The translations under genes and the position numbers were made by a program. The notes beneath the pieces are model-generated. The model saw only the letters and a list, made by a program, of their open reading frames with translations. It had not been told where the DNA came from and did no database searches. Below, piece after piece: positions 9,640 through 53,174 of a DNA stretch of 64,000 bases. The stretch comes from an uncultured Thermoleophilaceae bacterium. GTDB lineage: Bacteria; Actinomycetota; Thermoleophilia; Solirubrobacterales; Thermoleophilaceae. Each line of letters begins with the position of its first letter. Positions within the stretch are counted from its first letter, which is position 1. The stretch is taken from NCBI GenBank assembly GCA_963846865.1, contig CAWJXU010000002.1, positions 33,527 to 97,526 on the forward strand, given 5' to 3'.

Positions 9640-9642
9640 CCG

Positions 9643-34663: not shown

Positions 34664-34717
34664 CGGGCGAGAATCGCGCTGTGCGGGTGCCCAGTGTGTT
34701 GCGAGCGTTACGAAGAG

Positions 34718-34807
34718 CGGAGAGGGAGGGATTCGAACCCTCGAAGGAGCTATTAGCCCCTTACTCGCTTAGCAGGCGAGTGCCTTCAGCCACTCGGCCA
34801 CCTCTCC
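34718..34807 (-). tRNA. tRNA-Ser (anticodon GCU)
   Basis: The reverse complement GGAGAGGTGGCCGAGTGGCTGAAGGCACTCGCCTGCTAAGCGAG..GAGGGTTCGAATCCCTCCCTCTCCG has a long variable arm and anticodon loop CT-GCT-AA. Confidence 0.9.
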
Positions 34808-39141: not shown

Positions 39142-40024
39142 GGTCGGGGACGTGGAGCTCTGCTACGAGCCGTTCGGCGATCCGGGTCATCCCGCCGTGC
39201 TGCTCGTCATGGGGCTTGGTACCCAGATGATCGGCTGGCACGCGGATTTCTGCACCCAGCTAGCCGAACGCGGGTTCTACGTCATCCGCTACGACAACCG
39301 CGACGTCGGCCGCTCGACCCACTTGAGCGATCGCCCTGCGCCCACTCCGCGCGAGATTCTGACGCGCCGCATCCGGCGCCCGGCGTACCTGCTCGCCGAC
39401 ATGGCTGACGACGGCATGGCCCTCCTGACCGAGCTCGGGATCGAGCGCGCCCACATCGTCGGCGCGTCGATGGGCGGCATGATCGCCCAGACGATGGCGG
39501 CGAACCACCCGGACCGGGTGCTCTCGCTCGTCTCGATCATGTCGAGCACGGGCAGCCGCTGGTCGGGACAGCCCGCCCCGCGCATCCTGCCCGTGTTCCT
39601 GCAGAAGCCCGCGGCGAGCAAGGAGGACTACCAGGAGCGGATCGTGAAGCTCTTCGGCCTCGTCGGCTCACCGGCCTACGAGCGCGACGATGACGAGCTG
39701 CGCGAGCTGGCCGGGGTCAGCTGGGACCGCGGTATCGACCCGGCGGGCTTCGCGCGCCAGCTCGGCGCGATCATCGCAAGCGGCCACCGGGCGAAGGACC
39801 TGAAGCGGATAAAGGCCCCGACGCTCGTGATCCATGGCAAGGCCGACAAGCTGGTGCGCCCATCAGGCGGGCGTGCGACCGCGCGCGCGATACCGGGGGC
39901 CCGCCTCGACCTGATCGACGGCATGGGCCACGACCTGCCGCGCCAAGTCTGGTCGCGCATCCTCGACGGGATCGAGCAGACGGCCGAGAGGGCCGATCAG
40001 CCCGTCGCGCAGCCGGCCGGCTAA
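39122..40024 (+). CDS. Alpha/beta-fold hydrolase
   Basis: ..AVLLVMGLG.., nucleophile elbow GASMGG and ..GMGHDLP near the C-terminus. Confidence 0.7.
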   Translation: MDERFCKVGDVELCYEPFGDPGHPAVLLVMGLGTQMIGWHADFCTQLAERGFYVIRYDNRDVGRSTHLSDRPAPTPREILTRRIRRPAYLLADMADDGMALLTELGIERAHIVGASMGGMIAQTMAANHPDRVLSLVSIMSSTGSRWSGQPAPRILPVFLQKPAASKEDYQERIVKLFGLVGSPAYERDDDELRELAGVSWDRGIDPAGFARQLGAIIASGHRAKDLKRIKAPTLVIHGKADKLVRPSGGRATARAIPGARLDLIDGMGHDLPRQVWSRILDGIEQTAERADQPVAQPAG

Positions 40025-40729
40025 CCGACGCCGACGACCTGCTCGCAGCGGCGGACGCGGTCCTTCGAGTCGATAAACGCGCTGTCCTGGCCTTTGCCGC
40101 AGTCGATCCGGTCGCGCTTCCCGTCACGTGCCTCGATCGTGTCCTTGCCGCCGTTCCCGTTGACCCGGTCGCGACCGCCGCCACCGTCGAGCGTGTCATC
40201 GCCCGGGCCGCCCTTCAGCCTGTCGCGGCCGAGGAAGCCCTGGCCCGGTGTCGTTGTCTTTCCCGCCGCGTAGGGCATCGCGCTTCTCCGCGCCGAGCAT
40301 CTTGTCGTTGCCGGGACCACCGGTCTGGGTGGTGCCCAGGCTGATGTTCGTGGCCTCCTGGCAGTCCGGCTTCTCCATGCACTCGTTCGCGCGCAGGTCA
40401 TCGTCCCCGGCGCGGCCGTGAAGTCTGTCGCGGCCGACGTTGTCACAGATCCGGCCGAGCTCGCCGACGTCACAGTCGGCCCCGAACACCTTGTCGTTGC
40501 CGTCACCGCCCTTGATGACGTCGTTGTCGCCATTGCCGTTGAGCGTGTCGTCGCCGCTGAGGCCATTAATCTTGTCCTCGCCGCGGCCGCCTTCGATCTG
40601 GTCCGCCTGCGCGGTGCCGTTGATCGTGTTGGACTCATCGTCGCCCTCGATCTCCTCCGCGATCGCGAAGGCGCCCAGTCCGAGGACGAGGATGCCTGCC
40701 AGCGTCGCGATGCGGGAGCGCGACACCAT
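40021..40729 (-). pseudogene. RTX-type (hemolysin-type) Ca-binding repeat protein, one frameshift near 40255; last gene of copper operon 1
   Basis: The ATG at 40729 shares one base with the TGA of the propeller gene (TGATG). Signal/anchor, then ..GGRGEDKINGLSGDDTLNGNGDNDVIKGGDGNDKVFG.. and ..GGPGDDTLDGGGGRDRVNGNGGKD.. in a second frame. Confidence 0.6.
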
Positions 40730-42600
40730 CACCGGACCTGCAGCTCGCCCTTCATGTTCGGATGCGGGTCGCACAAGAACGCGTACGTACCGGGCTTGAG
40801 CTTCTCCACGCCTTCCACCGGCACCGTCTGTCCACCGTCGGTGAGCTCGCTACGGAACAAGCCGTCCGGGGATGAGACGTTGTGCTTCACGGCGTCGTAG
40901 TTCGTGTAGGAGACCTTCCCGCCCTGGCTGACCGTCACGGTCGGCGTCAAGTACCCGTAGCTCTGGGCGCCGGGGCCGGAGGCGATGGTGGCGTCGCTCG
41001 AGCCGGAGCCGCCGTCGTCCGGTGGCTCCTCGCCGCCTCCGCCGCCGCCTCCGCCTCCGTCGTCTCCGCCCGGGTCTCCAGTGGCCCCGCGCTTGAGCGC
41101 GAACAGCGTGCTCGCGCCCCCCGCTTGCGCCGTCGCGAACACCATGTGACGCGCGACCGAGACCCCGCTCGAGTTCCCCATGTCGTGCATCGTCTCCCCG
41201 GTGTCCCCCTGGAACGAATGCGAGAGCAGCTGCGAGCCGTCTGAGGCGTCGAACGCCTGGAGCGCGCCGACGGCGTCATTCAGGCTGTAGACGATCCCGT
41301 TCGCCACGGCCACGCCGTTGTAACGCATGCCGCCTGTCAGCGGCGTGGCCCACTGGACCGCGCCGGTGTCCTTGTTCAGCGAGTACAGGTTGCCGCCGGT
41401 GACGGCGACGTAGATCCCGTTCTTGTCCATAGCGCTCGAGCTGAGGTTGCAGCCGAAGCACGGAATCCCGATCGTGGCCTGCCAAGCCTCTTCCATGGTG
41501 TCTGTGTAGACCGCGGTGAACACCCCGGACTTCTGCAGGGCGCCCAACATCTGGCGCCCTTCGGAGTTGGTCCACAGATTCGGTGACGCAAGGAAGTTGA
41601 AGTCGAACTGCGCGCACGAGAAACGCCCGGCCGGCCACTGCACGTCGCTCTGACACGTGGGTGAGTCGATGTCCTGGGGAGCCGGATAGCTGTCCGAGGT
41701 GCCGCGATGGTGGGCCAAGATCTTTCCGAACTTCTTCGACTTGGGATTCGCGTTGATCTTGAGCAGCGAGTTGGTGATCGGATGCTGCTTCTCGCTGGCC
41801 GGGTTTCCGGTGCCCGCGAAGACCAGCATCTTCTTTACGTCGATCGCCGGCGTGTTGATGGTCGAGCCGCCGCGGTAGCCGGCCTTGTAGTCCTTCTTCG
41901 GGATGTTGTGGGTCTTGACCAGGATCTTGCCGCGCCCCTTGCGTGAGCCGTCCAAGATCACGAATCCGGGCCACGAGTGATCGCTCGACTCATCGCCCTT
42001 GAAGGCCTGGAAGATCATTCCCTTGAACGGCACGGGGCTCGAGTCGAGGCCGCCGCCCTCATCCTTGTCGACCACGCGCCTCCAGACGACCTTTCCGGTG
42101 CGCCGGTCGAGCGCCGAGAGCACAGAACCCTTGGGCGTGGTAGCGCCGACGTAGACGAGCTTGCCGACCACCGCGGGCGCGCCGACGACTCCGGCGCCCT
42201 CTGCAATGTTGCTGCCTTCGCTCTTGCCCACCGACCGCTTCCACACCACCTTGCCGGTGTTGACGTTCAGCGCATAGACGTTGCCGAGCTCGGTCCCAAT
42301 GAACACGCAGCCCTTGGCCACGGTCGGTGTCGAGTGGATCAGGCTTCCGTCCGGTGTGGTCGTCTGCCAGGCGACGCCGAGCTCGGAGACGTTGCCGGTG
42401 TCGATCGACTTCTCCTTGAGCTGCTCGCGGTGGTTGTTGAGAGTGCCGCCGTAGAACGGCCACTCGCCCGCGCGCGGCTTGGGCTTTGCGCACTTCGCGC
42501 GCTTCTCAGGCTTTGCCGGGGCCGCCGGCCCTGGCGCAGCAAGCGCGAGGGCCGCAATCGCCATCGTCGCGAGCACGACGAACCGCTTCACGGCGACCAC
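40729..42600 (-). CDS. Secreted PQQ-like beta-propeller repeat protein fused to a C-terminal amicyanin-like cupredoxin (copy 1)
   Basis: Signal peptide. Repeated ..G.VYALN..TGKVVW.. blade motifs. A poly-Gly linker (GGGGGGGGG). Then ..VKHNV..YAFLCDPHPNMKGELQVR (His, Cys-x2-His-x2-Met). Confidence 0.7.
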   Translation of the reverse strand: MVAVKRFVVLATMAIAALALAAPGPAAPAKPEKRAKCAKPKPRAGEWPFYGGTLNNHREQLKEKSIDTGNVSELGVAWQTTTPDGSLIHSTPTVAKGCVFIGTELGNVYALNVNTGKVVWKRSVGKSEGSNIAEGAGVVGAPAVVGKLVYVGATTPKGSVLSALDRRTGKVVWRRVVDKDEGGGLDSSPVPFKGMIFQAFKGDESSDHSWPGFVILDGSRKGRGKILVKTHNIPKKDYKAGYRGGSTINTPAIDVKKMLVFAGTGNPASEKQHPITNSLLKINANPKSKKFGKILAHHRGTSDSYPAPQDIDSPTCQSDVQWPAGRFSCAQFDFNFLASPNLWTNSEGRQMLGALQKSGVFTAVYTDTMEEAWQATIGIPCFGCNLSSSAMDKNGIYVAVTGGNLYSLNKDTGAVQWATPLTGGMRYNGVAVANGIVYSLNDAVGALQAFDASDGSQLLSHSFQGDTGETMHDMGNSSGVSVARHMVFATAQAGGASTLFALKRGATGDPGGDDGGGGGGGGGEEPPDDGGSGSSDATIASGPGAQSYGYLTPTVTVSQGGKVSYTNYDAVKHNVSSPDGLFRSELTDGGQTVPVEGVEKLKPGTYAFLCDPHPNMKGELQVR

Positions 42601-44330
42601 GGCCCCTCGGTGATCGACTTCCAGACCTCGCGCCGCGTACGCGCGCCCGGCGAGAGGTTCGACGCGAATGGCCGCGTCTCCATCAGGTGGTTGTCGGCGC
42701 GCGTGAGCGTGTACTCGTCGTCACGCAGCGCGTTCACCTGGTCGCAGCTGATCGCGTGCCGCTTCTTGTCCGCGTCCACGTTGTACGGCTTCGCGACGTT
42801 GCGACCGAGGATCCCGTTGCGGATCGTGCGCGCCGGGTTGGGCGCGGGCCGTGTGGGATCCTCGACGTCGCCGTCGAGCCCGTACGGCAGCCCGTAGAGC
42901 TCCTTGCCCTTCTCGGTGAACTCGAACCGGCGCAGCGAGACGATCTCCGGCTGCGGCGAGCCGTACCAGAGGCTGTCGGTTCCCCAAACGACGCGCTTCG
43001 GCCCTACGTGGTTGATCAGCTTGCCGAGCAGGTGCGCGGCCTGGTCAGGGTCGCTCATCGTGTCGCGCCAGACCGAGCCGAGCTCGGCGTACACGTTCGG
43101 CACGTTGCCGAACTTCTCGCCCCTCTTGCGGAACCGCGATGCGTCGTAGTTGTTCTCGCGAAGCGACTTGATGAAGCCGTCGACCGTCGTGGTCCCCGAA
43201 TCGGCCTCGGCGTCGCCGCGGTAGGCCTTCTGCTCGTCGCCCGTGTCGTAGCCCGAGTGGTAGACGATGATGTTCACGCCGGGGTGGGCCTTCGCCGCCG
43301 GGCCGACGTCGCGCGGCGCCGCGGCGCGCTGGTCGAAACCGGGCAGGGCGAAGCCCTTGTGCGTCGCGACCGTCGGGTTGATCTCCGGGTACTTCTCGGA
43401 GACGGCCTGGACCTGCTCGAGGAAGCGCGCGCCGGTATTGGAGTCGAGGAACCACCCGCTCGCGTTCGGCACGTCGCCCCAGGCGCAGTAGGTCTTCCAT
43501 CCGCGCAGCCGGTCGCGGTACTTCTCGGCGCGCTCCATCATCAGCTGCATCTCTTCCTCGAGGTAGAGCGGGGGATCGACCGTCTGCTGGGAGTCGCCGC
43601 TCCCACCGCGGTTCGGCATGACGAACGCGTGCATCACCGAGCGCTGCGAGCGCGCGAGCTCGTTGACCACGTCGATCGTCTGCGACGCCTCCTCGATCGG
43701 CAGCGGGTTGCGCGTGTCGGGCGAGGTCGGGACGACCGAAAGCACCGTGCACGTGGTCGCCGAGTCGAGGTAGATCTCCTTCAGGTAGTGGTAGCGGGAG
43801 AGGTTCTCGATCGGGTCCGCCTCGCCACCCTCTCGGGTTTGCGGCCATACCGCCGAGAAGAACGCGTGGATCGCCGGGTTCGTCGTACGCCACATCCCGT
43901 CCGGGTCGACATGGTGCGACTGCACGTCGAAGACGAACTCGCCGGGCAGGTTGCGGACGGTCTCGAGCCCCTTGCGGCCGGCCCACTCGAGATCGCATGC
44001 GTCAGGACGACCGGTCGAAACGCCCCGTGCGACTCCGCCGTAGTTCCCGTAGACGCCGGGTCGCACGGCGTCGATCGCCCAGAACCCGATCGCCAACGCC
44101 GCCGACGTGCGGACGAACTCACGGCGGCTCATGTTGAACTTGCGCCGCCAGCGCTCGACCTCTGCGTCCTGGAGAGCCATGATCGCCTTCTGCTCGCGCG
44201 ACGGCGGCAACGGGAAGTACTCGTCGTTGGAGCACGGCAGAACGTCGACCGCTACGTCCTCCGCCATCGTCTCCCACGCATCACGCGCGCTGGGCGAGCG
44301 AAGCGGCTGCCAGTTGCCCCAGTCCGCCAT
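42588..44330 (-). CDS. Tat-exported amidohydrolase-fold metallohydrolase with a 66-aa conserved pre-RR leader (copy 1)
   Basis: ..FNMSRREFVRTSAALAIG (twin-Arg motif at aa 68-73), ..FVFDVQSHHVD.., ..VATHKGFALPGFD.., ..VVWGTDSLWYG. The ATG immediately follows the TAA of the upstream gene. Confidence 0.65.
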   Translation of the reverse strand: MADWGNWQPLRSPSARDAWETMAEDVAVDVLPCSNDEYFPLPPSREQKAIMALQDAEVERWRRKFNMSRREFVRTSAALAIGFWAIDAVRPGVYGNYGGVARGVSTGRPDACDLEWAGRKGLETVRNLPGEFVFDVQSHHVDPDGMWRTTNPAIHAFFSAVWPQTREGGEADPIENLSRYHYLKEIYLDSATTCTVLSVVPTSPDTRNPLPIEEASQTIDVVNELARSQRSVMHAFVMPNRGGSGDSQQTVDPPLYLEEEMQLMMERAEKYRDRLRGWKTYCAWGDVPNASGWFLDSNTGARFLEQVQAVSEKYPEINPTVATHKGFALPGFDQRAAAPRDVGPAAKAHPGVNIIVYHSGYDTGDEQKAYRGDAEADSGTTTVDGFIKSLRENNYDASRFRKRGEKFGNVPNVYAELGSVWRDTMSDPDQAAHLLGKLINHVGPKRVVWGTDSLWYGSPQPEIVSLRRFEFTEKGKELYGLPYGLDGDVEDPTRPAPNPARTIRNGILGRNVAKPYNVDADKKRHAISCDQVNALRDDEYTLTRADNHLMETRPFASNLSPGARTRREVWKSITEGPWSP

Positions 44331-46115
44331 TTATTCAGCGACCTCGAAGGCGCCGCGCATGAACGGATGGATGCGGCAGAAGTACGTGACGACCTCGCCG
44401 GGCTTGTACCCCTCCTCCTTCGTCACGTCGAGCGACCAGTTCAGCTTGTTCGTGGCCGGCCCGATCGCCGGTGTGCCGAATCCGACCTCCGAGGAGTCGA
44501 AGTCGAGCTTGCGCTTCTTACTCGTGCGCCCGTCGGCAATCGGGAACGCCGCCCCCGTCGGGCCGAGGCACGGGAACTTGCACGAGGTGATCGTGTGCCA
44601 GATCGCGCCGCCCTCGAAGTTCGAGAAGTTGAGCGACTCGCCCAGCTTGACCGTGGGGATGCCCATCGACGTCCGGGTCGACAGGTCGCCCGGCACGTAC
44701 AGGAAGTCGGCGATGGCGACCTCGTTGCCCTCGCCGGAGCTCGTGGCCTCCCACTTCCCTTCCGCGTGGCCGCGGTTGGTGTTCTCGACCAGCTGCCCGT
44801 GCGTTACGGGGCCCTGCTCGCAGAGCACCGGGCGCTTCGCCTGGATGCCCGCCTTCTTCAGCCCGCCCTTCCGGTAGCAGTACCGGGATCGGTCGTGCTT
44901 GACCTTGAACGGGTTGACGCCCGGCGCTTGCCGCTTCCCGTTCTCGTCGTCGGGAACGAGCAGGCTGACCGCGATGCCCATGTTCTCGTAGGTCGACTGC
45001 AACTTGGTGTCGTAGGTCACGTTCGAGCGCAGCTTGTCGCCGGGCTTCACACGGACGCCCCAGAACGGATTCCCGACGACCGGCATCGAGAAGTCCCAGG
45101 AGTCCTTCGGACCGCCGCCCTTCTTCTTGTTCTTCCAGTAGACGGCCTTGCCCGTGTAGATCCGGCTCTTCTTCTTGCCGCGGACCAGGTCGATCTCGTT
45201 CTGGATCCCGCCCGGGTGCATGTGGCCGCCCATCCCGAGGATCGTCCCGCCGGTGAAGGGTCCCGCCCTGCCGAACGGCTCGCCCTTGGCGGGGAACTCC
45301 CAGTCTTCGCCCTTCCCGTTGCCGGGCTCGCCCTGGCCGACCTCCTTCTCACCCCAGGAGTTGAACGACGCGCACTGCTCCTTCGGCCACGTGCACATGC
45401 CGTCGCGGCCGCCGAAGCTTCGCTGGGTGTTGAAGACGGGGTAGCCCGACGGGCGCACGTCGAGCCACAGCGGGTACGCCGGCTTGATGCCGAGGTCGTC
45501 GCCCTTCGCCTTCGGGATGAAGTCGATGTCGTAGATGATGTAGGCCTCCATCGGCTGCGACACGGCCGAGTGGACCATGTACAGCAGCAGCCACGTATCC
45601 GTGCCCTGCACCGGCATTCCGTAGCCGCGCGGGAACGGCGCCACGGTCTTCTCCTCGCCAGAGGCGAAGAACGGGCCGCTGCCGTAATCGTCGGGTGCCG
45701 AGAGCCAGGTGCCGTGGTGGAGATGCACCTGCTCGACCGGCGGGACCGTGCCGTCGACGCGGACGAGGTTCGGGCGGAAGCGCGTGATGTAGCCGTCGAC
45801 CATCGGCTTCTCGATCGTCACCGGGTTGATCAGCACGTCGTTCTGCCCCGGCTTGACCGCGATCGGCCCGTAGGAGAAGCGCATGCGCTGGCACGCGCCG
45901 GGGTAGCGGACGTAGTCCGGCCCCTTCCAGCCCTCGGCCTTGTAGAACTGGCGCTCGAAGCGGTCTTTGCCCTCATACGCGCAGGGGCGCGGGAGCGCGT
46001 CGATCGCGAGCGGGTTCAACTCAGGCGTGGGCGCGCGATCGATCCTTTGCGCGGAAGCGCTCGACGGGACGATCAGCAGCACGACCAGAGCCAGCACTCC
46101 GACGAACTTCGACAT
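44331..46115 (-). CDS. Secreted PHM/DBH-like copper monooxygenase fused to a C-terminal amicyanin-like cupredoxin (copy 1)
   Basis: ATG 46115 follows GGAGG. Signal peptide MSKFVGVLALVVLLIVPSSASA. VHLHH (45714-45728), LLYMVHS, GGHMHPGG (45216-45224), VKPGDKL..YDT..STYENMG. C-terminus HTITSCKF..YFCRIHPFMRGAFEVAE. Confidence 0.6.
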   Translation of the reverse strand: MSKFVGVLALVVLLIVPSSASAQRIDRAPTPELNPLAIDALPRPCAYEGKDRFERQFYKAEGWKGPDYVRYPGACQRMRFSYGPIAVKPGQNDVLINPVTIEKPMVDGYITRFRPNLVRVDGTVPPVEQVHLHHGTWLSAPDDYGSGPFFASGEEKTVAPFPRGYGMPVQGTDTWLLLYMVHSAVSQPMEAYIIYDIDFIPKAKGDDLGIKPAYPLWLDVRPSGYPVFNTQRSFGGRDGMCTWPKEQCASFNSWGEKEVGQGEPGNGKGEDWEFPAKGEPFGRAGPFTGGTILGMGGHMHPGGIQNEIDLVRGKKKSRIYTGKAVYWKNKKKGGGPKDSWDFSMPVVGNPFWGVRVKPGDKLRSNVTYDTKLQSTYENMGIAVSLLVPDDENGKRQAPGVNPFKVKHDRSRYCYRKGGLKKAGIQAKRPVLCEQGPVTHGQLVENTNRGHAEGKWEATSSGEGNEVAIADFLYVPGDLSTRTSMGIPTVKLGESLNFSNFEGGAIWHTITSCKFPCLGPTGAAFPIADGRTSKKRKLDFDSSEVGFGTPAIGPATNKLNWSLDVTKEEGYKPGEVVTYFCRIHPFMRGAFEVAE

Positions 46116-46150
46116 CAGTCCTCCCCTACTAGGAAACAACCCCTTGCTTT

Positions 46151-46168
46151 TGGTACTGGTGCGTACCA
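46151..46168. promoter_or_regulatory. Palindrome TGGTAC-N6-GTACCA upstream of copper operon 1 (candidate TetR operator)
   Basis: tggtactggtgcgtacca lies 36 nt upstream of the 46115 start and is related to the palindromes at 46932 and 52923. Confidence 0.4.
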
Positions 46169-46232
46169 CCTGGTTACCCGGAGTAAACCACATCCGAGAC
46201 AACTAACGGTGCAGGTTGCGCCTACTTTCGCG

Positions 46233-46913
46233 CTAGCGCGAAACCGGCACTGGGGCGGCCGCGCCCTGGATCACGGCTGTGACGAGCTGGACCAGCACCG
46301 GGGCCAGCTCGGGAAGGGACTTCGCGTCCTTGGTGAGCAGGTGCTGCTGCACCAGCTCACCGATCCCACCTACCAGCGCGCGCAGGTAGACCACCGGCAC
46401 CTCGCCGATCTCCGGCTGCTGTTTCGCCGCGCGACGAGCGAGGACCACGTATTGCTGGACGAACTGCTCGTACACCTGCCGCCTCAGCTCGACGGCGGCC
46501 GGGCCGGCCCCCAGGACGTCCAGGAGGAACGTGCGCGCAAACGCGGGGTCGGAGGCGAGGCCTCCCACGTAGGTGTCGATCGCCACCTCGAGGACCTCGC
46601 GCCAGTGGGCGTCCTGGCCGACAGCAACCGACTCCTCGACCATGTTCTGGATCAGCGCTTCGGTGCCCGTCGCGTAGGCGGCGAGGAAGCATTCCTCCTT
46701 GTCCTTGAACTGCTCGTAGAAGGTGCGCCGCGAAACGCCGGCGATGCCGACCACGTCGCCGACGGTCACGCGCGAGTACCCCTTGTCCGCGACCGCGCGC
46801 GTGACCGCGTCGAGCATGCGCGCGCGCTGTGAGGCGGTGGTGGCTTGTTTTTGCCCGCGCCAGCCCTCGTCGGGCTCGAGTGCGCGGAAGAAGAGCGAGT
46901 CGGGAGGAGGCAT
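46233..46913 (-). CDS. TetR-family transcriptional regulator
   Basis: HTH ..YSRVTVGDVVGIAGVSRRTFYEQFKDKEECF... The internal ATG at 46913 is preferred. The longer ORF to 47009 would place the palindrome inside the coding sequence. Confidence 0.8.
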   Translation of the reverse strand: MPPPDSLFFRALEPDEGWRGQKQATTASQRARMLDAVTRAVADKGYSRVTVGDVVGIAGVSRRTFYEQFKDKEECFLAAYATGTEALIQNMVEESVAVGQDAHWREVLEVAIDTYVGGLASDPAFARTFLLDVLGAGPAAVELRRQVYEQFVQQYVVLARRAAKQQPEIGEVPVVYLRALVGGIGELVQQHLLTKDAKSLPELAPVLVQLVTAVIQGAAAPVPVSR

Positions 46914-46931
46914 GCGAGTACCTGCCGGTAG

Positions 46932-46951
46932 ATGGTACGTCCCCGTACCAT
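46932..46951. promoter_or_regulatory. Perfect 8+4+8 palindrome ATGGTACG-tccc-CGTACCAT upstream of tetR (candidate autoregulatory operator)
   Basis: Seen directly in the sequence, 19 nt upstream of the 46913 ATG. Confidence 0.45.
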
Positions 46952-47012
46952 AGCTACGTACCTCGACGACGCCCTCGCGCCGCGAGGACGCCGACCGGTC
47001 CGCCGCCATGAG

Positions 47013-47396
47013 CTAGGGCGTAACGCCCGAGTTCGCTTCGAAGCTGGCCACGCGCAGACCGTCGGCCAGGACATCGGCCTCGACGCGAACCTTCTCCCCA
47101 TCGGAGCGGACCACGATCGCCTCGGCACGCAGCGTCGCCACGTCTGTAGGAACGCGTGAATGGAAGTGCGCGCACAGGTCGAGCGTGGTCATGTCGGCGC
47201 TCCTGCCCTGATCGGGGACCGCCGTCGTCGCCGCGGCGTTCATCGCGGTCTCGGCGAACGCGACGAGCACGCCGTTTTCCACGAACCGCGCAGGCATCTC
47301 GTAGACGGCAACGCCCGCGGCGAACCGCACGAGTTCCATCTCCAGGTGCTCGGCCGCAGAGCTGACCGTGTTCTCGGACGTGTTGACGAATGACAT
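47013..47396 (-). CDS. Hotdog-fold (PaaI/4HBT-like) thioesterase-like protein
   Basis: ATG 47396 lies 8 nt after the propeller-2 stop, with GGAGG in between. The size (127 aa) and the ..NGVLVAFAETAMNAAATTA.. / ..LRAEAIVVRSDGEKVRVEADV.. pattern fit the fold. Confidence 0.45.
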   Translation of the reverse strand: MSFVNTSENTVSSAAEHLEMELVRFAAGVAVYEMPARFVENGVLVAFAETAMNAAATTAVPDQGRSADMTTLDLCAHFHSRVPTDVATLRAEAIVVRSDGEKVRVEADVLADGLRVASFEANSGVTP

Positions 47397-47404
47397 GTGC
47401 CCTC

Positions 47405-49267
47405 CTAGCGGACGACCAGCTGGCCCTTCATCCCAGGATGAAGGCTGCAATAGAACCCGTACGTCTTTCCGGACTCGACGTTCTCCAGGCCATTCACCGG
47501 CACCGTCTCCCCGGTCCCGGCGAGCACGCTGCTGAAGGTGCCGTCGTTCGCCACGACGTCGTGCCGGACGATGTCGCCGTTCGTGTAGTTCACCGGCCCG
47601 CCGACCTGGGTCACCATCACCGGCGTCAGGTATCCGTACGACGCGCCGCCGGGACCGGTGGCGATCGTCGTCCCGACTCCCGGCAGGCCGCCGCCGTCGG
47701 GCAGCTCGGGCAGCGCAGGCAGGGCCGGCCCGCCGCCGCCGCCACCGCCACCGCCACCGTCCTCACCGAGCTTGAACGCGAACAGCGTGCTCGTGTTGTC
47801 CCACTGCGACGTCGCGAACACCATGTTCCGCGCGACCGAGACGCCGCTCGAGTTCCCCTGGTCGTGCATCGGCGTCTCCGTGTCCTGGATGAACGGGTGG
47901 GTGAGCAGCGGAGTGCCGCTCGCGGCGTCGAACGCCTGCAGCGCGCCGAGCGCGTCGTTCAGGCTGTAGACGACGCCGTTCGCGACCGCGACGCCGTTGT
48001 AGCGGAACGTGCCCGTCAGCGGTGTCGCCCATTGGACCGCGCCAGTGTCGCGGTTCAGCGAGTACAGGTTGCCTCCCGTCGTAGCCACGTAGATGCCGTT
48101 CGCATCAACCGCGCTCGAGCTTAGGTTGCAGCCGAAGCAGGGCGGGCTCAGAGTGGCCTGCCACTCGACCTCCATCGTCTCGGTGTCCACCGCGGTGTAC
48201 ACGCCCGACTTCTGGAGTCCGCCGAACAGCTTCCGCCCGTCGGTATGGCTCCACAGGTTCGGCGACGCCAGGAAGTTGAAGTCGAACTGGGCACACGTAA
48301 AGCGCCCGACCGGCCACTGCAGCTCCGTGTTGCAGACCGGCGACTCGACGTCGTTCGGCGCCGGATAGCTGTCCGACGTCCCGCGCTGCGACGCGAGGAT
48401 CTGCCCGAACGTCGAGCTGGCCGGGTCGGCGTCGATCTTCAGCAGCGCGTTCGTGCGCTCGTTCTGCCTCGGGCTGGCCGGGTTCCCCGTGCCGGCGAAG
48501 ATGAGCTTGCGCTCGAGGTCTACCGTCGGCGTGTTCACGATCGAGCCGCCGCGGTCGCCCGCCTCGAAGTCCTCTTCCGAGATCACGTAGTTCTTGGCGA
48601 GGATCTGACCGCCGCCCTCGCGTGAGCCGTCCACGATCACGAACCCCGGCTTCGAGTGGTTGCTCGACTCGTCGCCCTTGAAGGACTGGAAGATCATGCC
48701 GTTGAACGGCACCGGACTGGAATCGAGCCCGCCGCCGTCGTCCTCGTCGACGACCTGCTGCCACACGATCGCGCCGGTTGCCTGGTCGAGCGCGGACAGG
48801 ACGGACGCCTCCGGCGTCGTCGCGCCTACGTAGACGAGGCCATCGACGACCGCCGGCGAGCCGACGATGCCGGCGCCGTTCGTGATCGAGCTGCCGTCGC
48901 TGTCGCTCAGAGCCTGGGTCCACACGACCTCGCCGGTGTCCGCGTTGACCGAGAAGACGTTGCCGAGGTCAGTGCCGAAGAAGACGCAGCCGTCCACGAC
49001 CGTGGGCGTGGAGTGGATGGTGCCGCCATCGGGTGCGGCGAGCTGCCACGCAACCCCGAGCTGGGAGGCGTTGTCGGTGCCGATCGTGGTCTCGCTGAGC
49101 TGCTCGCGATGCCCGTCGAGCGTGCCGCTGTAGAACGGCCACTCGCCGCCCTCGGCCTCGGGCGCGCCGCAGGTGGCGGCGCTCTGCGCGCTCGCGCCGG
49201 CCGGCGCAAGGAGCGCTGCCCCCGCGACCAGCGTGAAGACGAGTGTCCGGATCCTCATGGCGTCCAC
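47405..49267 (-). CDS. Secreted PQQ-like beta-propeller repeat protein fused to a C-terminal amicyanin-like cupredoxin (copy 2)
   Basis: Full-length paralog of 40729..42600, with shared blocks GEWPFY.GTL..HREQL, CAQFDFNFLASPNLW and PCFGCNLSSSA. C-terminus ..VRHDV..YGFYCSLHPGMKGQLVVR. Confidence 0.7.
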   Translation of the reverse strand: MDAMRIRTLVFTLVAGAALLAPAGASAQSAATCGAPEAEGGEWPFYSGTLDGHREQLSETTIGTDNASQLGVAWQLAAPDGGTIHSTPTVVDGCVFFGTDLGNVFSVNADTGEVVWTQALSDSDGSSITNGAGIVGSPAVVDGLVYVGATTPEASVLSALDQATGAIVWQQVVDEDDGGGLDSSPVPFNGMIFQSFKGDESSNHSKPGFVIVDGSREGGGQILAKNYVISEEDFEAGDRGGSIVNTPTVDLERKLIFAGTGNPASPRQNERTNALLKIDADPASSTFGQILASQRGTSDSYPAPNDVESPVCNTELQWPVGRFTCAQFDFNFLASPNLWSHTDGRKLFGGLQKSGVYTAVDTETMEVEWQATLSPPCFGCNLSSSAVDANGIYVATTGGNLYSLNRDTGAVQWATPLTGTFRYNGVAVANGVVYSLNDALGALQAFDAASGTPLLTHPFIQDTETPMHDQGNSSGVSVARNMVFATSQWDNTSTLFAFKLGEDGGGGGGGGGGPALPALPELPDGGGLPGVGTTIATGPGGASYGYLTPVMVTQVGGPVNYTNGDIVRHDVVANDGTFSSVLAGTGETVPVNGLENVESGKTYGFYCSLHPGMKGQLVVR

Positions 49268-51030
49268 GGCCCCTCCCTCAGTCCCTGCAGTACCTCGCGG
49301 CGCGTGCGCGCCCCGTTCACCTGGTTCGACGCCAACGGCGCTTGCTCCGTCGGCTTTCCGGCGTCCTTTACGTAGTCGGACTTCTGGAGGCCGTTGACGG
49401 CCTCGCAGTCGAGCGCGTTGCGCTTCGCGTCCGGATCGATGTTGTAGGCCAGCGCCGCGTTGCGGCCGAGGATGCCGTTGCGGATGGTCCGCTCCGGGCT
49501 GGGCGCCGGCTGCGTCGGGTCCTCGACGTCTCCGTCGAGGCCGTAGGGCAGGTTGTAGAGCGCCTTGGCCTCATCGGAGAACTCGAGCGTTCGCATGGCG
49601 ACGATCTCCGACTGCGGCGAGCCGTACCACAGGCTGTCGGTGCCCCAGGCGATCCGCTTGGGGCCGACGTGCGTGATCAGCTTGCCGAGCAGGTGCGCGG
49701 CCGCGCTCGGGTTTCCGACGTGGTCGCGCCACACCGACCCGAGCTCTGCCCAGACGTTCGGCACGTTGCCGAATGTCTTGCCGGGCTCGATGAACTGCGA
49801 CGCGTCGTAGTCGTTCTCGCGCAGCGACTTGATGAACGAGTCGACTGAGCGGTCCGACGAGTTGACGTTCTCGTCGCCGGCGTACTCGGTCTCGCCTCCC
49901 TGGAAGAGGTCGTAGCCCGAGTGGTAGATCATGAAGCGCACGCCCGGGTTCGCCTTGGCCGCCGGGCCCACGTCGCGCGGCGCGGCGCCGCGCTGGTCGA
50001 AGCCCGGCAGGGCGAAGCCCTTGTGCGTGGCCACGACCGGCGGGATGTCGGGGTAGGCGTCGCTGACCTTCTTGACGTTCTCGAGGAACCCCATGCCCGC
50101 GTCCGAGTCGAGCTGCCAGCCCGACGCGTGCGGCACGTCACCCCAGGCGCAGTAGGTCTTCCAGCCGCCCAGGATCTCGTGGTACTGCTCGGCCCGGGTC
50201 CACATCTGCTCCATCTCCTGGTCGAAGAAGAGCGGCTTCGGCGGCTCTTGGCCGGTCGGCTCCATTAGTTGGTCCTGGGTCATGCCCGTCCCGCCGCGGT
50301 TCGGCATGACGAAGGCGTGCATGATCGCGCGCTGCGAGTTCGTCATCTCGTTCGCCGCGTTCACCGTCAGCGCGGCCTCCGCGAGCGGCAGCGGGTTGTT
50401 CGTGTCCGGGGAGGTCGGCGTGCACGAGAGCACCGTCATCGTGGTCGCCGAGTCCAGGTACAGCTCCTTCATGTAATGGAACCGCGACATGTTCTCGACG
50501 GGGTCGATCTCGCCGGCGCCGCCGCCGCGGATCGAACCGTCCTCGCGGAGCCCGGGCTGGTCGCCGAGCGCCGGCGACGCCTGCGGCCAGACCGCCACGA
50601 AGAAGGCCATCATCGCCGGGTTCGTGACCCGCCAGTCGCCCTCCGGGTCGACGTGGTGTGACTGGATATCGAAGACGAACTCGCCCGGCAGGTTCATCAA
50701 CGTGCTCTTGTCGGTCGCCTCGTCCCACTCGAGGTCACAGGCGTTCGTCGTAGCCGTGTTGTGGCCGAGCGCGTAGCTGCCCCACCGCGTGTTCATCACC
50801 GCGTTGATCGACCACATGCCGATCGACATCGCGGCCGACGTGCGGACGAACTGGCGGCGGCTCATGTTGAAGTGCCGCCGCCACCGCTCGACCTCGCGGT
50901 TCTGCAGCCGCATGATCGCGATCTGCTCCGGAGTGACCGGGAGGGGCGCGTACTCGTCGTTCGAGCAGGGGAGGATGTCCACCGGGAGGCCCTCCCACTG
51001 GTCGGGCCAGGACTTCTTCCAGGTGATCAT
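49255..51030 (-). CDS. Tat-exported amidohydrolase-fold metallohydrolase with a long conserved leader (copy 2)
   Basis: Full-length paralog of 42588..44330: LPCSNDEYAPLP, EVERWRRHFNMSRRQFVRTSAA, FVFDIQSHHVD, ATHKGFALPGFDQRGAAPRDVGPAAKA. The ATG overlaps the upstream TAA by 1 nt. Confidence 0.65.
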   Translation of the reverse strand: MITWKKSWPDQWEGLPVDILPCSNDEYAPLPVTPEQIAIMRLQNREVERWRRHFNMSRRQFVRTSAAMSIGMWSINAVMNTRWGSYALGHNTATTNACDLEWDEATDKSTLMNLPGEFVFDIQSHHVDPEGDWRVTNPAMMAFFVAVWPQASPALGDQPGLREDGSIRGGGAGEIDPVENMSRFHYMKELYLDSATTMTVLSCTPTSPDTNNPLPLAEAALTVNAANEMTNSQRAIMHAFVMPNRGGTGMTQDQLMEPTGQEPPKPLFFDQEMEQMWTRAEQYHEILGGWKTYCAWGDVPHASGWQLDSDAGMGFLENVKKVSDAYPDIPPVVATHKGFALPGFDQRGAAPRDVGPAAKANPGVRFMIYHSGYDLFQGGETEYAGDENVNSSDRSVDSFIKSLRENDYDASQFIEPGKTFGNVPNVWAELGSVWRDHVGNPSAAAHLLGKLITHVGPKRIAWGTDSLWYGSPQSEIVAMRTLEFSDEAKALYNLPYGLDGDVEDPTQPAPSPERTIRNGILGRNAALAYNIDPDAKRNALDCEAVNGLQKSDYVKDAGKPTEQAPLASNQVNGARTRREVLQGLREGPWTP

Positions 51031-52859
51031 TACTCCGCTACCTCGAACGCCCCGCGCATCGACGGGTGGATGCGGCAGAAGTACGTGACGATCTCGCCCT
51101 TCTGGTAGCCCTCGTCCTCCGTCACGGGCACCGTCCAGTCGAGCACGTTCTTCGCACCGCTGATCTCGGGCACCGAGAAGCCGAGCTGGCCCGAGTCCAT
51201 CTCGACAGGACGGCCGGCGCTGGACTCGCCGTCACCCAGCGGGAACGCTGCGCCTGTCGGCCCGAGGCACGGGAACTTGCACGACGTGATCGTGTGCAGG
51301 ATCCCTCCGCCGTCGAGGTTCGTGAAGCGCAGGTTCGAGCCGAGCGGCACCTTCGGCACGCCCAGGCTGTTCGCCTGGCTCAGATCCCCGGGGACGTAGA
51401 GGAAGTCGGCGATCCCGACCTCGTTCGTCGCCCCGCTCAACGGCGCATCCGACGGGACGGTCCACTCGCCCTGCGGGCCGCCGCGGAAGGCGTTCTCCTT
51501 GTAGTGCCCATGCGTCTCGAAGAGCCCGTTCGGGCACAGCGTCGGAGTCGCCGCCGCCAGCCCGCCGGAGTCGCACCTGTCGGAGTTGTCGACAGGCGCT
51601 GTGAACGCGTCGACGCCTGGCGCCTGCTTGTTCCCTTCAGCGTCCTCGGGAACGAGCAGCGAAACGACGATGCCCATGTTCTCGTAGGTCGACTGGAGCT
51701 TCGTGTCGTACGCCGCGTTCGAGCGGAGCACGTCACCCGGCTCGACGTGAACGCCCCAGTTCGGCAAGCCGCTCACGCGCATCGAGAAGTCCCACGTGTC
51801 GGGCGGGCCGCCGCCCTTCGTCTTGTCGTCGGGGTCCCAGTAGGTCGGGATGCCCGTGTAGATCCGCTGCTCCTGGTCTCCCCTGACCAGGTCGACCTCG
51901 TTCCGGATGCCGCCAGGGTGGAGGTGTCCGCCGAGGCCGATGATCGTCCCGCCGGTGAAGTTGTCGACTTGGCCGAACGACTCTCCCTCTGCAGGGAGCG
52001 CCTCGTCCTGGCCGATGCCGTTTCCGGGCTCGCCCTGGCCGACCTCGGTCTCCCCCCACGAGTTGAACGCGGCGCACTCCTCCTTCGGCCACGTGCACTC
52101 GCCGTCCTCGCCGCCGAACGGGCGCTGGACGTTGAAGACGGGATAGCTCGACGGGCGAACGTCAAGCCAAAGCGGATACGCCGGCTTCATCTCGGCTGCG
52201 GCCGGCGAGCTCGCCGGCACGAAGTCGATCTCGTACGTGATGTACACCTCCATCGGGTTCTGCACGGCCGAATGGACCATGTAGAGGAGCTGCCACTGGT
52301 CGGTCGCCTTGATCGGCATGCCGTAGCCGCGCGGGAACGGCGCGATCGTCTTCTCCTCGCCCGACGCGAAGAAAGGCCCGTCGCCGTAGCTGTCCGTGGC
52401 GTTCAGCCAGGTGCCGTGATGCAGATGCACCTCATGCACCGGCGGCACGGTGCCGTCGACGCGCGTCAGGTTCGGCTTGAAGCGCGTGATGTAACCGTCC
52501 TGCAGCGGCTTCTCGATCGTTACCGGGCCGAGGAGGACGTCGTTCTGGCCGGGCTTGACCGCGAGGGGGCCGTAGGCGAAACGCATGCGGACGCAGGAGC
52601 CGGGATAGCGCTCGTACTGCGTGGCCGGATCCCATCCCTCGACCTCGTACGCCTTGCTCTCGACCGGGTCGCCGGCGTCGTCGACGCACTTCTTCTTGAG
52701 CATGGGCTCCCCGTCGAACTCGCCGCCGTTGAAGGTGCCCGCGAAGTTTGGATCCGGTGTGGCCGGAGGCTGTGGCGGCCGCTCGTCCTGTCCAGATGCC
52801 GCCCCTGGCACTGCAAGCGCCAGAAGCGAGATGACCATTACGAGCGCGTAGACGCGCAC
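51030..52859 (-). CDS. Secreted PHM/DBH-like copper monooxygenase fused to a C-terminal amicyanin-like cupredoxin (copy 2)
   Basis: GTG 52859 follows AGGGGGA. Signal peptide VRVYALVMVISLLALAVPGAASG. VHLHHGTWL, LLYMVHSAV, GGHLHPGG, VEPGDVL..YDTKLQSTYENMG, HTITSCKFPCLGPTGAAFP, YFCRIHPSMRGAFEVAE. Confidence 0.6.
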   Translation of the reverse strand: MRVYALVMVISLLALAVPGAASGQDERPPQPPATPDPNFAGTFNGGEFDGEPMLKKKCVDDAGDPVESKAYEVEGWDPATQYERYPGSCVRMRFAYGPLAVKPGQNDVLLGPVTIEKPLQDGYITRFKPNLTRVDGTVPPVHEVHLHHGTWLNATDSYGDGPFFASGEEKTIAPFPRGYGMPIKATDQWQLLYMVHSAVQNPMEVYITYEIDFVPASSPAAAEMKPAYPLWLDVRPSSYPVFNVQRPFGGEDGECTWPKEECAAFNSWGETEVGQGEPGNGIGQDEALPAEGESFGQVDNFTGGTIIGLGGHLHPGGIRNEVDLVRGDQEQRIYTGIPTYWDPDDKTKGGGPPDTWDFSMRVSGLPNWGVHVEPGDVLRSNAAYDTKLQSTYENMGIVVSLLVPEDAEGNKQAPGVDAFTAPVDNSDRCDSGGLAAATPTLCPNGLFETHGHYKENAFRGGPQGEWTVPSDAPLSGATNEVGIADFLYVPGDLSQANSLGVPKVPLGSNLRFTNLDGGGILHTITSCKFPCLGPTGAAFPLGDGESSAGRPVEMDSGQLGFSVPEISGAKNVLDWTVPVTEDEGYQKGEIVTYFCRIHPSMRGAFEVAE

Positions 52860-52922
52860 CTGCAAAATCCCCCTGCCTTGCACGTATTCCCCCCTGCTGT
52901 TAGATGTGCGTTCCGCTAGTGC

Positions 52923-52938
52923 GGTACGCCTCCGTACA
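52923..52938. promoter_or_regulatory. Imperfect palindrome GGTACG-cctc-CGTACA upstream of copper operon 2 (candidate TetR operator)
   Basis: Lies 64 nt upstream of the 52859 start and has the same half-site as 46932-46951, with one mismatch. Confidence 0.3.
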
Positions 52939-53043
52939 CACCGGTACGCGGATGTATATGGGTGCGCTAGGGGGCTGTCAAGGGGCGCGGCGGATTTTTT
53001 TCCTGCCGCCCCGCGAAAGCGGCAGCTGTCAAAGCGGAGGGGG

Positions 53044-53110
53044 TGGGATTCGAACCCACGGTCCGCCTAACGACGGACACCGGTTTGAAGGCCGAGTCCC
53101 CTGGGGTGTT
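53044..53110 (-). pseudogene. tRNA-Ser/Sec-like 3' remnant (T arm, long variable arm, part of the anticodon arm; no 5' half)
   Basis: The reverse complement ..GGCCTTCAAACCGGTGTCCGTCGTTAGGCGGACCGTGGGTTCGAATCCCACCCCCTCCG has its last 27 nt identical to tRNA-Ser(UGA). The anticodon stem does not pair and no GGAGGGG 5' acceptor strand is found. Confidence 0.4.
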
Positions 53111-53174
53111 CCGCCTACGAGCGGCGACGGTGAGGGGAGCTGCTGGTTTTCGCGCAAAGCGGAAGCGGGTGCGC

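Follow-up and report, generated by a model that had tools for sequence, protein, structure and literature searches.

The 64,000-nucleotide stretch analysed here, which we call the window, belongs to the genome of an uncultured Thermoleophilaceae bacterium (contig CAWJXU010000002.1 of assembly GCA_963846865.1) and carries on its minus strand two tandem copies of a three-gene block. The question that this locus raises is what the three encoded proteins do and whether they do it together. We denote the proteins A (PHM/DBH-like plus cupredoxin), B (amidohydrolase-like) and C (propeller plus cupredoxin), with the numerals 1 and 2 marking the two cassettes. The public annotation of these exact proteins goes no further than 'hypothetical protein' or 'predicted TIM-barrel fold metal-dependent hydrolase', and no function assigned to the trio was found in the annotations or literature searched. 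The identities of the three parts are put forward with high confidence. The mechanism that would join them, which we regard as on balance probable, is an extracytoplasmic copper oxidation module in which C feeds A with electrons, B carries out a non-redox step and a TetR-family regulator exerts control.

The region comprises eleven co-directional genes, all on the minus strand, among them the two A-B-C trios, a hotdog thioesterase, a TetR regulator and an RTX protein (Table 1). Cassette 1 (A1-B1-C1, 52883-47405) and cassette 2 (A2-B2-C2, 46115-40729) have an identical gene order, and their products are pairwise 63% (A1/A2), 61% (B1/B2) and 64% (C1/C2) identical over nearly their full length. 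These identities reflect an old duplication of a three-gene block and not chance, so that the view of the locus in the initial annotation, as two co-directional minus-strand operons that repeat one gene order, is borne out, with all six open reading frames (ORFs) present. Tight translational coupling had also been claimed. The junctions cited for A and B are as described (TAATG at 51030 for A1/B1; abutting TAA and ATG codons at 44330/44331 for A2/B2), but the 13-nt overlaps reported between B and C are an artefact of the longest-ORF rule. The probable start of C1 is the ATG at 49258, for which a GGAGG box is better placed and which gives a 4-nt ATGA overlap with B1; that of C2 is the GTG at 42591, which gives a 4-nt GTGA overlap with B2. 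The genes are coupled either way, and in cassette 2 the series continues with the RTX gene, the start of which overlaps the C2 stop by 1 nt. The start proposed for A2, at 46115, is also that of the public gene call.

The identity of A had to be sought in its predicted structure, as neither A1 nor A2 has a match in Pfam (E ≤ 0.01) or NCBIfam. An AlphaFold2 model of A built on 29 sequences (predicted local distance difference test score, pLDDT, of 74; predicted template-modelling score, pTM, of 0.76) was compared with the PDB using Foldseek. Ranks 1-24 were taken exclusively by human DBH (4zel) and 22 rat PHM structures (E of 1e-7 to 2e-5, probability 1.0, about 360 aligned columns), followed by cupredoxin-containing nitrite reductases and multicopper oxidases. 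The catalytic core of the model is accordingly a predicted two-domain β-sandwich of the PHM/DBH type. Enzymes of this class bind one copper through three histidines (CuH) and the other through two histidines and a methionine (CuM) (PMC2988203); in PHM these are H107/H108/H172 and H242/H244/M314, respectively (numbering checked on PDB chain 4e4z). The candidate ligands in A follow the PHM order of HH, H, HxH and M. Seven residues (H153, H155, H156, H204, H320, H322 and M403) are 100% conserved in 72 A-family members from metagenome bins (37-100% identity), and all of them except H153 vary hardly at all in 140 members of the superfamily, with identities as low as about 25%; H153 is replaced by Met in some relatives (for example 'MFHHGVW' in P0291). 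Non-significant hhalign alignments, used solely as hints of colinearity, pair PRGYGM with PKGVGF and H204 with H172 of PHM and bring the HH pair to within one residue of H107/H108, while a second places H320/H322 opposite H242/H244. The candidate sites in A are 116 residues apart, and the spacing contains a low-confidence insert that includes Cys. In weak motif alignments the residues of PHM that anchor the peptidyl-glycine substrate, R240, N316 and Y318, correspond to G318, I405 and V407 in A. As A would then lack the peptide-anchoring residues, a glycine-extended peptide is unlikely as its substrate.

The C-terminal 130 residues of A contain a second candidate copper site with a C-x2-H-x2-M loop, where YFCRIHPSMRGAFEV resembles the YHCTPHPFMRGKVVV of amicyanin. 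Its four presumptive type-1 copper ligands (H530, C603, H606 and M609), which include the Cys-x2-His-x2-Met set typical of amicyanin, are 96-100% conserved. A1 by itself matched no cupredoxin family in hidden Markov model (HMM) or sequence searches; when a profile of the diverse A superfamily was searched against the PDB, the sole matches were amicyanins (E of 0.011-0.016), aligned through GtYtYfCRihPfmrG. Homologues of A are abundant, forming more than 1200 clusters at 90% identity that are annotated as 'hypothetical' or loosely as 'plastocyanin', and the profile of the catalytic core retrieves 1031 representatives (50% identity) at E ≤ 1e-3, 176 of them at E ≤ 1e-30.

Protein C is identified more directly. 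PF01011 is matched with 48.9 and 52.6 bits (cut-off 26.7), and PF13360 (PQQ_2) is also passed. A profile of the C family finds BamB and designed propellers through their repeats, and gives single long matches to the quinohemoprotein alcohol dehydrogenases 1yiq and 1kv9 (E of 1e-26). The alignment with dehydrogenases that use pyrroloquinoline quinone (PQQ) is confined to the N-terminal half, and the NCBIfam model 'acido-empty-quinoprotein' gives an equal, sub-threshold match. A sub-profile aligns with methanol dehydrogenases (E of 1e-8), such that 'vsGgsaelg' falls on SG-AELGVRG (Glu177) and 'GtGnPf' on GSGNPAPWN (Asn261). AELG and GTGNP, the motifs aligned in this way to the calcium ligands of methanol dehydrogenase, are retained in the majority clade of C; across the family D329, N337 and K353 are invariant and N262, in GTGNP, is nearly so. 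The sub-clade of C1 and C2 deviates, the DxDLDFGASPNLF motif reading QFDFNFLASPNLW and a CFGC motif having been gained (PPCFGCNLSSSA), which hints at remodelling of the active site. Of the three parts, it is the propeller that varies most, with about 35% identity between lineages. The C-terminal cupredoxin has conserved ligands (H569, C607, H610 and M613); with 27.7 bits C2 scores above the Pfam Copper-bind cut-off of 21.2, and C1 has only sub-threshold amicyanin matches. A PAL-like role for C was considered and rejected, as the families matched are those of PQQ-type propellers and no histidine is conserved in the propeller across the C family.

Several homologues of A (P0058, P0068, P0078 and P0291) contain a Lys/Arg-rich insert of 60-110 residues immediately after the HxH motif, and a comparable insert is present in the propeller of two C homologues (L002, 13317-15800; L022, 6340-8397). 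These inserts could bind an anionic cell-wall polymer or a substrate.

For B, PF04909 (Amidohydro_2) is passed narrowly (27.9 bits for B1 and 34.5 bits for B2, cut-off 26.4) and is precomputed for most homologues; searches of the PDB with the sequence and with a 27-sequence profile gave noise and no relative. The AlphaFold model is a barrel of alternating strands and helices, for which the best Foldseek matches (E of 1e-5 to 1e-3) are isoorotate decarboxylase (IDCase; 4lak), γ-resorcylate decarboxylase (2dvt/2dvu), FhcA and uronate isomerase. H336-K337, H370 and D465 are invariant, the histidines following predicted strands 5 and 6 and the aspartate strand 8, positions at which the superfamily has its metal-binding and catalytic residues. 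The N-terminus of B is unusual. A twin-arginine translocation (Tat) motif lies in the segment MSRRQFVRTSAAMSIGMW, in which, over 27 sequences, R58 and F61 never vary and R59 reaches at least 90% conservation. The hydrophobic segment that follows is conserved as well (G71 is invariant, W73 and I75 almost so), and an AxA site is not evident; B is probably a Tat signal-anchor protein that is attached to the membrane. The 55 residues that precede the motif (50866-51030; the same in B2) are strongly conserved between lineages, with D18, P21, S23, N24, E26 and P29 invariant in the pattern VDxLPxSNxExxP...EQ..IM. This conservation exceeds what is expected of the n-region of a signal peptide, and the region matches no family; it is perhaps a functional cytoplasmic N-region that serves as a chaperone-binding site.

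Taken together, most of the part assignments in the initial annotation hold. C is a PQQ-like propeller, B is an Amidohydro_2 protein with MSRRQFVR behind a leader of 55 residues, and amicyanin-type cupredoxins are present in both A and C, as judged from the conserved ligand sets, the amicyanin profile matches and the passing score of C2. The description of A as PHM/DBH-like agrees with the predicted fold and the ligand pattern but not with any HMM match, and the Gly-rich linker that had been placed before the cupredoxin of two proteins is found in C, the linker of A not being rich in Gly. Export signals, expected on all three proteins, were recognized by eye as hydrophobic, signal-like N-terminal segments in A and C and as the Tat motif in B. 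The Sec-type segments of A and C, the putative copper proteins, and the Tat motif of B, a putative non-copper metalloenzyme, agree with the way in which metals are known to be sorted by the compartment where a protein folds.

Whether the three proteins belong together was assessed from their conservation elsewhere. A pattern scan of one genome per species returned 301 relatives of A, of which the best 80, all from metagenome bins, were taken; these best 80 come from Thermoleophilia, Acidimicrobiia, Frankiaceae, Mycobacteriales, Chloroflexota, Dormibacterota and one bin labelled Burkholderiales. Fifty-six of the loci were informative (non-redundant and with at least 4.2 kb 3' of A), and the trio was scored in these by tblastn. 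A, B and C occur in this order in 41 of the 56, in genome bins of Thermoleophilia, Acidimicrobiia, Actinomycetes and Chloroflexota, so that the trio does co-occur in other genomes, as the initial annotation had required of its own proposal; A and B alone are present in seven, A and C in one and A alone in seven. On inspection of the ORFs, two of the last group (L044 and L063) carry a short C-like or cupredoxin gene. Two cassettes in tandem, with the tetR gene in between, are also found in the nearest relative (L011), and L005 is a further locus with two. Of the two types, that of cassette 2 alone is present in L017 and L023, and that of cassette 1 alone in L004 and L029. The duplication is thus an old one, of which both copies were retained. 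As a direct test of selection, B1, C1, A2 and C2 were compared with their orthologues from L011 and L017, and the ratio of nonsynonymous to synonymous substitution rates (dN/dS) was 0.08-0.28.

Fusions provide the strongest evidence for a physical cooperation of A and C. In L034 (a Chloroflexi bin; roughly nt 8001-11660) and L039 (an Acidimicrobiia bin) the two proteins are encoded by a single ORF, in which the end of A (...HPFMRGAFAV) is followed by a Pro-rich linker and then by the start of mature C (GGEWRSYGHD), the signal peptide of C being absent. Neither fusion locus has a B gene. A second type-1 copper motif is present 3' of A in 46 of the 56 loci. A free cupredoxin gene of about 150 residues lies just 3' of A or C in 11 loci, and where a C next to such a gene was checked it had no fused cupredoxin (for example in L014). 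The electron path of the initial annotation, from C through two cupredoxins to A, is strengthened by these arrangements, and we consider electron flow from C to A to be a well-motivated proposal. Two other apparent fusions were rejected. That of B and C in L001/L003 is a frameshift artefact, with the junction out of frame and the signal peptide of C following it, and that of A and B in L029 was dismissed by analogy, the ORF lacking the C-terminus and type-1 copper motif of A.

In three bins from Dormibacterota and Chloroflexia the gene for an Nramp divalent-metal transporter, and not B and C, follows A (L072, 9893-11896; L076, 10315-13360; L077, 9831-12812), and a NicO nickel/cobalt transporter is also found 3' of A in L076 and L077.

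The genes for the two cassettes may be regulated jointly. The palindrome GGTACG-N4-CGTACC occurs three times in the window with at most one mismatch (0.12 expected), each time at the 5' region of a gene (Table 1). Among the related loci, perfect copies are restricted to the four in which tetR is co-directional. They are found 5' of A in L011, L017 and L023, and L011 and L017 have another at the tetR 5' end or upstream of it. The regulator gene itself stands directly 5' of A in ten related loci, either co-directional or divergent. The TetR gene and the three palindromes thus point to shared control of the cassettes. A scan for promoters and terminators returned nothing exceeding the expectation from shuffled sequence.

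In the mechanism that we propose, A would be a non-coupled dicopper monooxygenase of the PHM/DBH fold acting outside the cytoplasm, with H155/H156/H204 accepting electrons and H320/H322/M403 binding oxygen and substrate, and its fused amicyanin-type domain would be the electron entry port that replaces ascorbate. C would oxidize a donor substrate and pass single electrons to its own blue copper, from there to the blue copper of A and on to CuH and CuM. B, a presumptive member of the ACMSD/γ-resorcylate decarboxylase/IDCase branch, would fold and load its metal in the cytoplasm, be exported through Tat, probably remain anchored to the membrane and catalyse, either ahead of the hydroxylation or following it, a hydrolysis, hydration or decarboxylation, with no redox chemistry involved. 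A TetR repressor acting on GGTACG-N4-CGTACC would control both cassettes and its own gene in response to an organic inducer. The gene content, the duplication, the conserved trio, the predicted fold of A, the residue patterns, the fusions of A with C and the palindromes are observed. That copper is bound, that electrons run from C to A, what B does and that TetR exerts control are inferred.

A number of observations weigh against this mechanism or against the identities on which it is built. For A, a scan of 29 family members against Pfam at E ≤ 10 returned no relevant family, phmmer and profile searches of the PDB gave noise and neither PHM nor DBH, hhalign of the family and superfamily profiles with the PHM chain was not significant, and the structural model is only moderately confident, with TM scores normalized to the target of 0.41-0.55 over the DBH and PHM matches and of about 0.45-0.55 when the target is PHM. 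C reaches 71-84 bits with the NCBIfam PQQ-dehydrogenase model TIGR03075, for which the cut-off is 480. In the C1/C2 sub-clade the SGGSAEL segment with the calcium-ligand Glu is deleted, FKGDESSNHS standing in that position; the C family has no vicinal Cys-Cys, its conserved cysteines (C33, C94, C312 and C325) being non-adjacent; and no PQQ synthesis gene was found among the genes examined in the 64 kb of genome that the window covers. The model of B is weak (pLDDT of 60), and after strand 1 it has Q123-S-H125-H126 where H-x-H or E-x-H is expected, the Gln being the anomaly. At the level of the locus, five of the seven loci with A alone remain without B, C or a partner cupredoxin, a second cupredoxin was not seen in ten of the 56 loci, and no clue to the substrate was found.

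The alternative that survives best, though we consider it unlikely, is a catabolic pathway in which C passes no electrons directly to A. C would be an ordinary dehydrogenase of periplasmic type with a cupredoxin that reduces the respiratory chain, A would draw on another donor through its own cupredoxin, and the genes would be linked only by successive intermediates. Amicyanin and azurin are natural acceptors of quinoprotein dehydrogenases (amicyanin, for example, of methylamine dehydrogenase), so the amicyanin-like domain of C suits this explanation, as do the loci that have A without C. The fusions of A with C and the near-universal pairing of cupredoxins argue against it, as does the lack of a recurrent gene for a cytochrome or other acceptor; in the neighbourhoods of the related loci, genes for copper chaperones, cytochromes or PQQ synthesis do not recur.

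It is less probable still that C has no redox function at all and is a cofactor-less 'empty quinoprotein' or a BamB-like propeller that binds or presents a polymeric substrate or serves as a scaffold for the complex, its cupredoxin being a relay or copper store and A being reduced by small reductants from the environment. BamB is among the top PDB matches of C and the acido-empty-quinoprotein model scores equally well; furthermore, C1 and C2 lack the Glu segment and a vicinal Cys-Cys, and the propeller is the part that is least conserved. Such a role is difficult to reconcile with the AELG and GTGNP motifs of the majority clade, with the invariance of D329, N337 and K353 and the near-invariance of N262, and with a redox domain that is always either attached to C or encoded beside it.

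A function in metal handling, as an extracellular cuprous oxidase, a copper sink or an oxidative-stress system, appears very improbable. The predicted copper sites number at least four per cassette, Nramp and NicO genes follow A in the Dormibacterota and Chloroflexia bins, and Nod19, which is considered below, is co-regulated with copper through miR398 (PMC3882225). The HH/H plus HxH/M pattern with its methionine is, however, what is typically seen in monooxygenases that activate oxygen. Copper-resistance genes (CopA, CopZ, CsoR or others) are not located nearby, B has no obvious role in metal handling, and the presence of TetR control instead of a metal sensor suggests an organic inducer. Peptide amidation would have A act by hydroxylation on a C-terminal glycine or an N-acyl-glycine, with B or C in the role of PAL to free the amide. 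It has in its favour the PHM fold of A, the cleavage of C-N bonds in the superfamily of B and the proximity of a penicillin-amidase gene to the trio both in the window and in L002, but is scarcely credible: R240/N316/Y318 have no counterparts (in alignments that are not significant), the folds nearest to B are decarboxylases, hydratases and isomerases and not lyases, C lacks the histidine triad, B is absent where A and C are fused and the penicillin amidase occurs in only five close loci. The analogy to PHM plus PAL drawn in the initial annotation is not supported.

The copper monooxygenase reading of A may extend beyond bacteria. PF07712 (SURNod19) is matched by five of 56 distant members of the A superfamily (alignment A7), below the cut-off and with a best E of 6.3e-6, and in P0291 and P0305, for which coordinates were returned, the match falls in the HxH-bearing domain. 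The matching relatives share the architecture of A, including the terminal FFCRIHPLMRG; A1 and A2 themselves have no PF07712 match. A is therefore related to the SURNod19 family without being a member of it, and the matches tie Nod19/MtN19, a family of plants and fungi, to a superfamily that is PHM-like and probably binds copper. The function of Nod19/MtN19 is stated to be unknown (PMC9632046, PMC3882225), and the Nod19 transcript is a target of miR398, its level following the copper supply (PMC3882225). Like A, Nod19 is of secreted type, but it differs in size (about 400 residues). Our literature search found no paper linking Nod19 to PHM-type enzymes. A bolder version of the proposed mechanism, which we regard as unlikely, is a self-sufficient extracellular machine that converts C-H to C=O: A would hydroxylate a C-H bond of the substrate, C would dehydrogenate the resulting alcohol, or the aldehyde that the alcohol releases, and return exactly the two electrons that A requires by way of the two blue-copper domains, with neither ascorbate nor any other outside reductant, and B would process the carbonyl by cleavage, hydration or decarboxylation. 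Its corollary is that the Nod19 proteins would be copper monooxygenases belonging to the superfamily of A.

The coordinates of the features discussed are collected in Table 1.

Table 1. Genes, domains, candidate sites and candidate operators of the two cassettes (positions in the window).
Feature	Position	Strand	Description
A1	51030-52883	-	617 aa (longest ORF); alternative plausible start 52859; PHM/DBH-fold, secreted, putative dicopper monooxygenase with C-terminal amicyanin-type cupredoxin
A1 candidate CuH ligands	H155/H156 within 52416-52427; H204 52272-52274	-	From invariance and PHM order
A1 candidate CuM ligands	H320/H322 51918-51926; M403 51675-51677	-	From invariance and PHM order
A1 type-1 copper site	H530 51294-51296; C603/H606/M609 51057-51077	-	From conserved motif
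A1 cupredoxin domain	51033-51431	-	
B1	49255-51030	-	591 aa; Amidohydro_2-type TIM-barrel metalloenzyme
B1 twin-arginine motif MSRRQFVR	50842-50865	-	Residues 56-63
B1 candidate metal/catalytic residues	Q123/H125/H126 50653-50664; H336/K337 50020-50025; H370 49921-49923; D465 49636-49638	-	
C1	47405-49267	-	620 aa; secreted eight-bladed PQQ-dehydrogenase-like propeller, Gly-rich linker and amicyanin-type cupredoxin
C1 Gly-rich linker	47666-47767	-	
C1 cupredoxin	47408-47665	-	CSLHPGM at 47429-47449
Hotdog-fold (4HBT) thioesterase	47013-47450	-	Between the cassettes; accessory, in only four related loci
TetR-family regulator	46233-47009	-	Probable start M33 at 46913
A2	44331-46202 (longest ORF); public gene call from 46115	-	594 aa; paralogue of A1
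A2 motifs, as in A1	HLHHG 45711-45725; MVHS 45567-45578; GHMHPGG 45207-45227; ENMG 44976-44987; CRIHPFMRG 44352-44378	-	
B2	42588-44330	-	580 aa; paralogue of B1
C2	40729-42600	-	623 aa; paralogue of C1
RTX (HemolysinCabind) calcium-binding repeat protein	40021-40729	-	Secreted; fourth coupled gene, last of the second operon
Palindrome GGTACG-N4-CGTACC, one mismatch	52923-52938	.	40-79 nt 5' of A1 start; candidate TetR operator
Perfect palindrome GGTACGTCCCCGTACC	46934-46949	.	tetR 5' end, 21-36 nt 5' of start 46913; candidate autoregulatory operator
Palindrome, one mismatch	46152-46167	.	37-52 nt 5' of A2 start 46115; candidate TetR operator

An RTX-type gene abuts C or precedes A in nine related loci. 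The copy in the window contains one frameshift near 40240 (40021-40774), while its homologues in L017, L022 and L023 are unbroken, with a 4-nt overlap at the stop of C. On the other side of the cassettes, the potassium transporter gene kup (53175-55096, minus strand) is broken over at least four reading frames and may be a pseudogene or the product of assembly indel errors, and split B or C genes are also found in several related genome bins. Since all of these breaks may be assembly errors, the argument that the six ORFs are intact in a frameshifted neighbourhood, from which the initial annotation had deduced selection, is weak evidence: the six ORFs are indeed present, but the RTX gene of the second cassette is itself frameshifted.

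The flanks of the cassettes contain a penicillin-amidase family gene (35456-38119, plus strand), a GH10 xylanase gene (38116-39141, minus strand) and an α/β-hydrolase gene (39122-40024, plus strand). All three were rejected as clues to the pathway, as they recur in few close relatives, the association with the penicillin amidase in about five; such a gene is also close to the trio in L002. The other recurrent neighbours of the trio are mostly housekeeping genes such as polA, rpsA, aspartokinase and recR. Immediately 5' of the A1 promoter region is a degenerate tRNA-like sequence (53036-53118, minus strand) in which the variable arm is long and the anticodon loop reads CUUCAAA. In Rfam it matches tRNA-Sec best, with 31.6 bits against a gathering score of 47 that it does not reach, and it was not called by ARAGORN; it may be a damaged or mis-assembled selC or the remnant of an integration site. 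Further away, an ORF with AbiEi antitoxin-like and DUF559/REase_MTES_1575 domains (33731-34663, minus strand) adjoins a tRNA-Ser (34717-34807).

If the proposed mechanism is true, it would add to the PHM/DBH fold a large bacterial branch of about 1000 clusters at 50% identity that the family libraries do not recognize, and would reveal, in abundant soil Actinomycetota and Chloroflexota, a means of extracellular copper oxygenation that needs no ascorbate. The route by which electrons enter CuH and cross to CuM has long been debated, and a spectroscopically visible type-1 copper domain on the catalytic core, together with a natural protein donor, would provide a handle on both steps. It would also supply a concrete, testable hypothesis for plant Nod19/MtN19 as a copper-regulated target of miR398. 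To our knowledge, work on the PHM/DBH class has been confined almost entirely to animals, and we know of no earlier example of the fusion of a protein such as A to a cupredoxin or of its pairing with a cupredoxin-bearing propeller. The literature search found no paper on bacterial members of the class and no characterized Tat-anchored counterpart of B among Amidohydro_2 proteins, and nothing relevant on the PDB entries 9m2c, 9m2j and 9m2k.

Comparison with known systems shows which features would be new. A shares with PHM, DBH and tyramine β-monooxygenase (PF01082, PF03712) the predicted fold, the order of the candidate ligands and the presumed non-cytoplasmic location. It differs from them in being bacterial, in having no detectable sequence similarity, in its fused type-1 copper domain, in the lack of a DOMON domain and of peptide anchors, and in the proposed use of a dedicated dehydrogenase partner instead of ascorbate. 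B resembles ACMSD, γ-resorcylate decarboxylase, LigW and IDCase in its PF04909 match, in the tentative fold of its model and in its candidate histidines after predicted strands 5 and 6 and aspartate after predicted strand 8; the enzymes of this branch are cytoplasmic and have about 300-350 residues, whereas B has about 590, with a Tat motif, a pre-motif region of 55 residues, large inserts and Q-x-H. PAL is a six-bladed propeller with a zinc-binding histidine triad, while C is of the PQQ type with no conserved propeller histidine.

The closest functional parallels for the transfer from C to A are found in two groups of redox chains. In fungi, PQQ-dependent pyranose dehydrogenase and CDH reduce lytic polysaccharide monooxygenase (LPMO) extracellularly by means of a built-in one-electron mediator domain (PMC6881789). 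The likeness, an extracellular dehydrogenase that bears its own mediator and serves a copper monooxygenase, is a precedent for the proposed donation from C to A. The fungal systems differ in that the mediator is a cytochrome b, the acceptor has a mononuclear histidine-brace site and the genes are not in an operon; we know of no fusion of donor and acceptor among them. Methylamine dehydrogenase with amicyanin and quinohemoprotein alcohol dehydrogenase with azurin likewise pass single electrons from a quinoprotein propeller to a small blue-copper protein, and A and C share the amicyanin-type C-x2-H-x2-M loop. In contrast to those chains, the cupredoxin of C is fused to the propeller, the use of PQQ by C is putative and the proposed acceptor is a monooxygenase instead of a cytochrome and oxidase. 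The parts of the system thus belong to known superfamilies, and the structural model of A is consistent with an unrecognized bacterial branch of the PHM/DBH fold.

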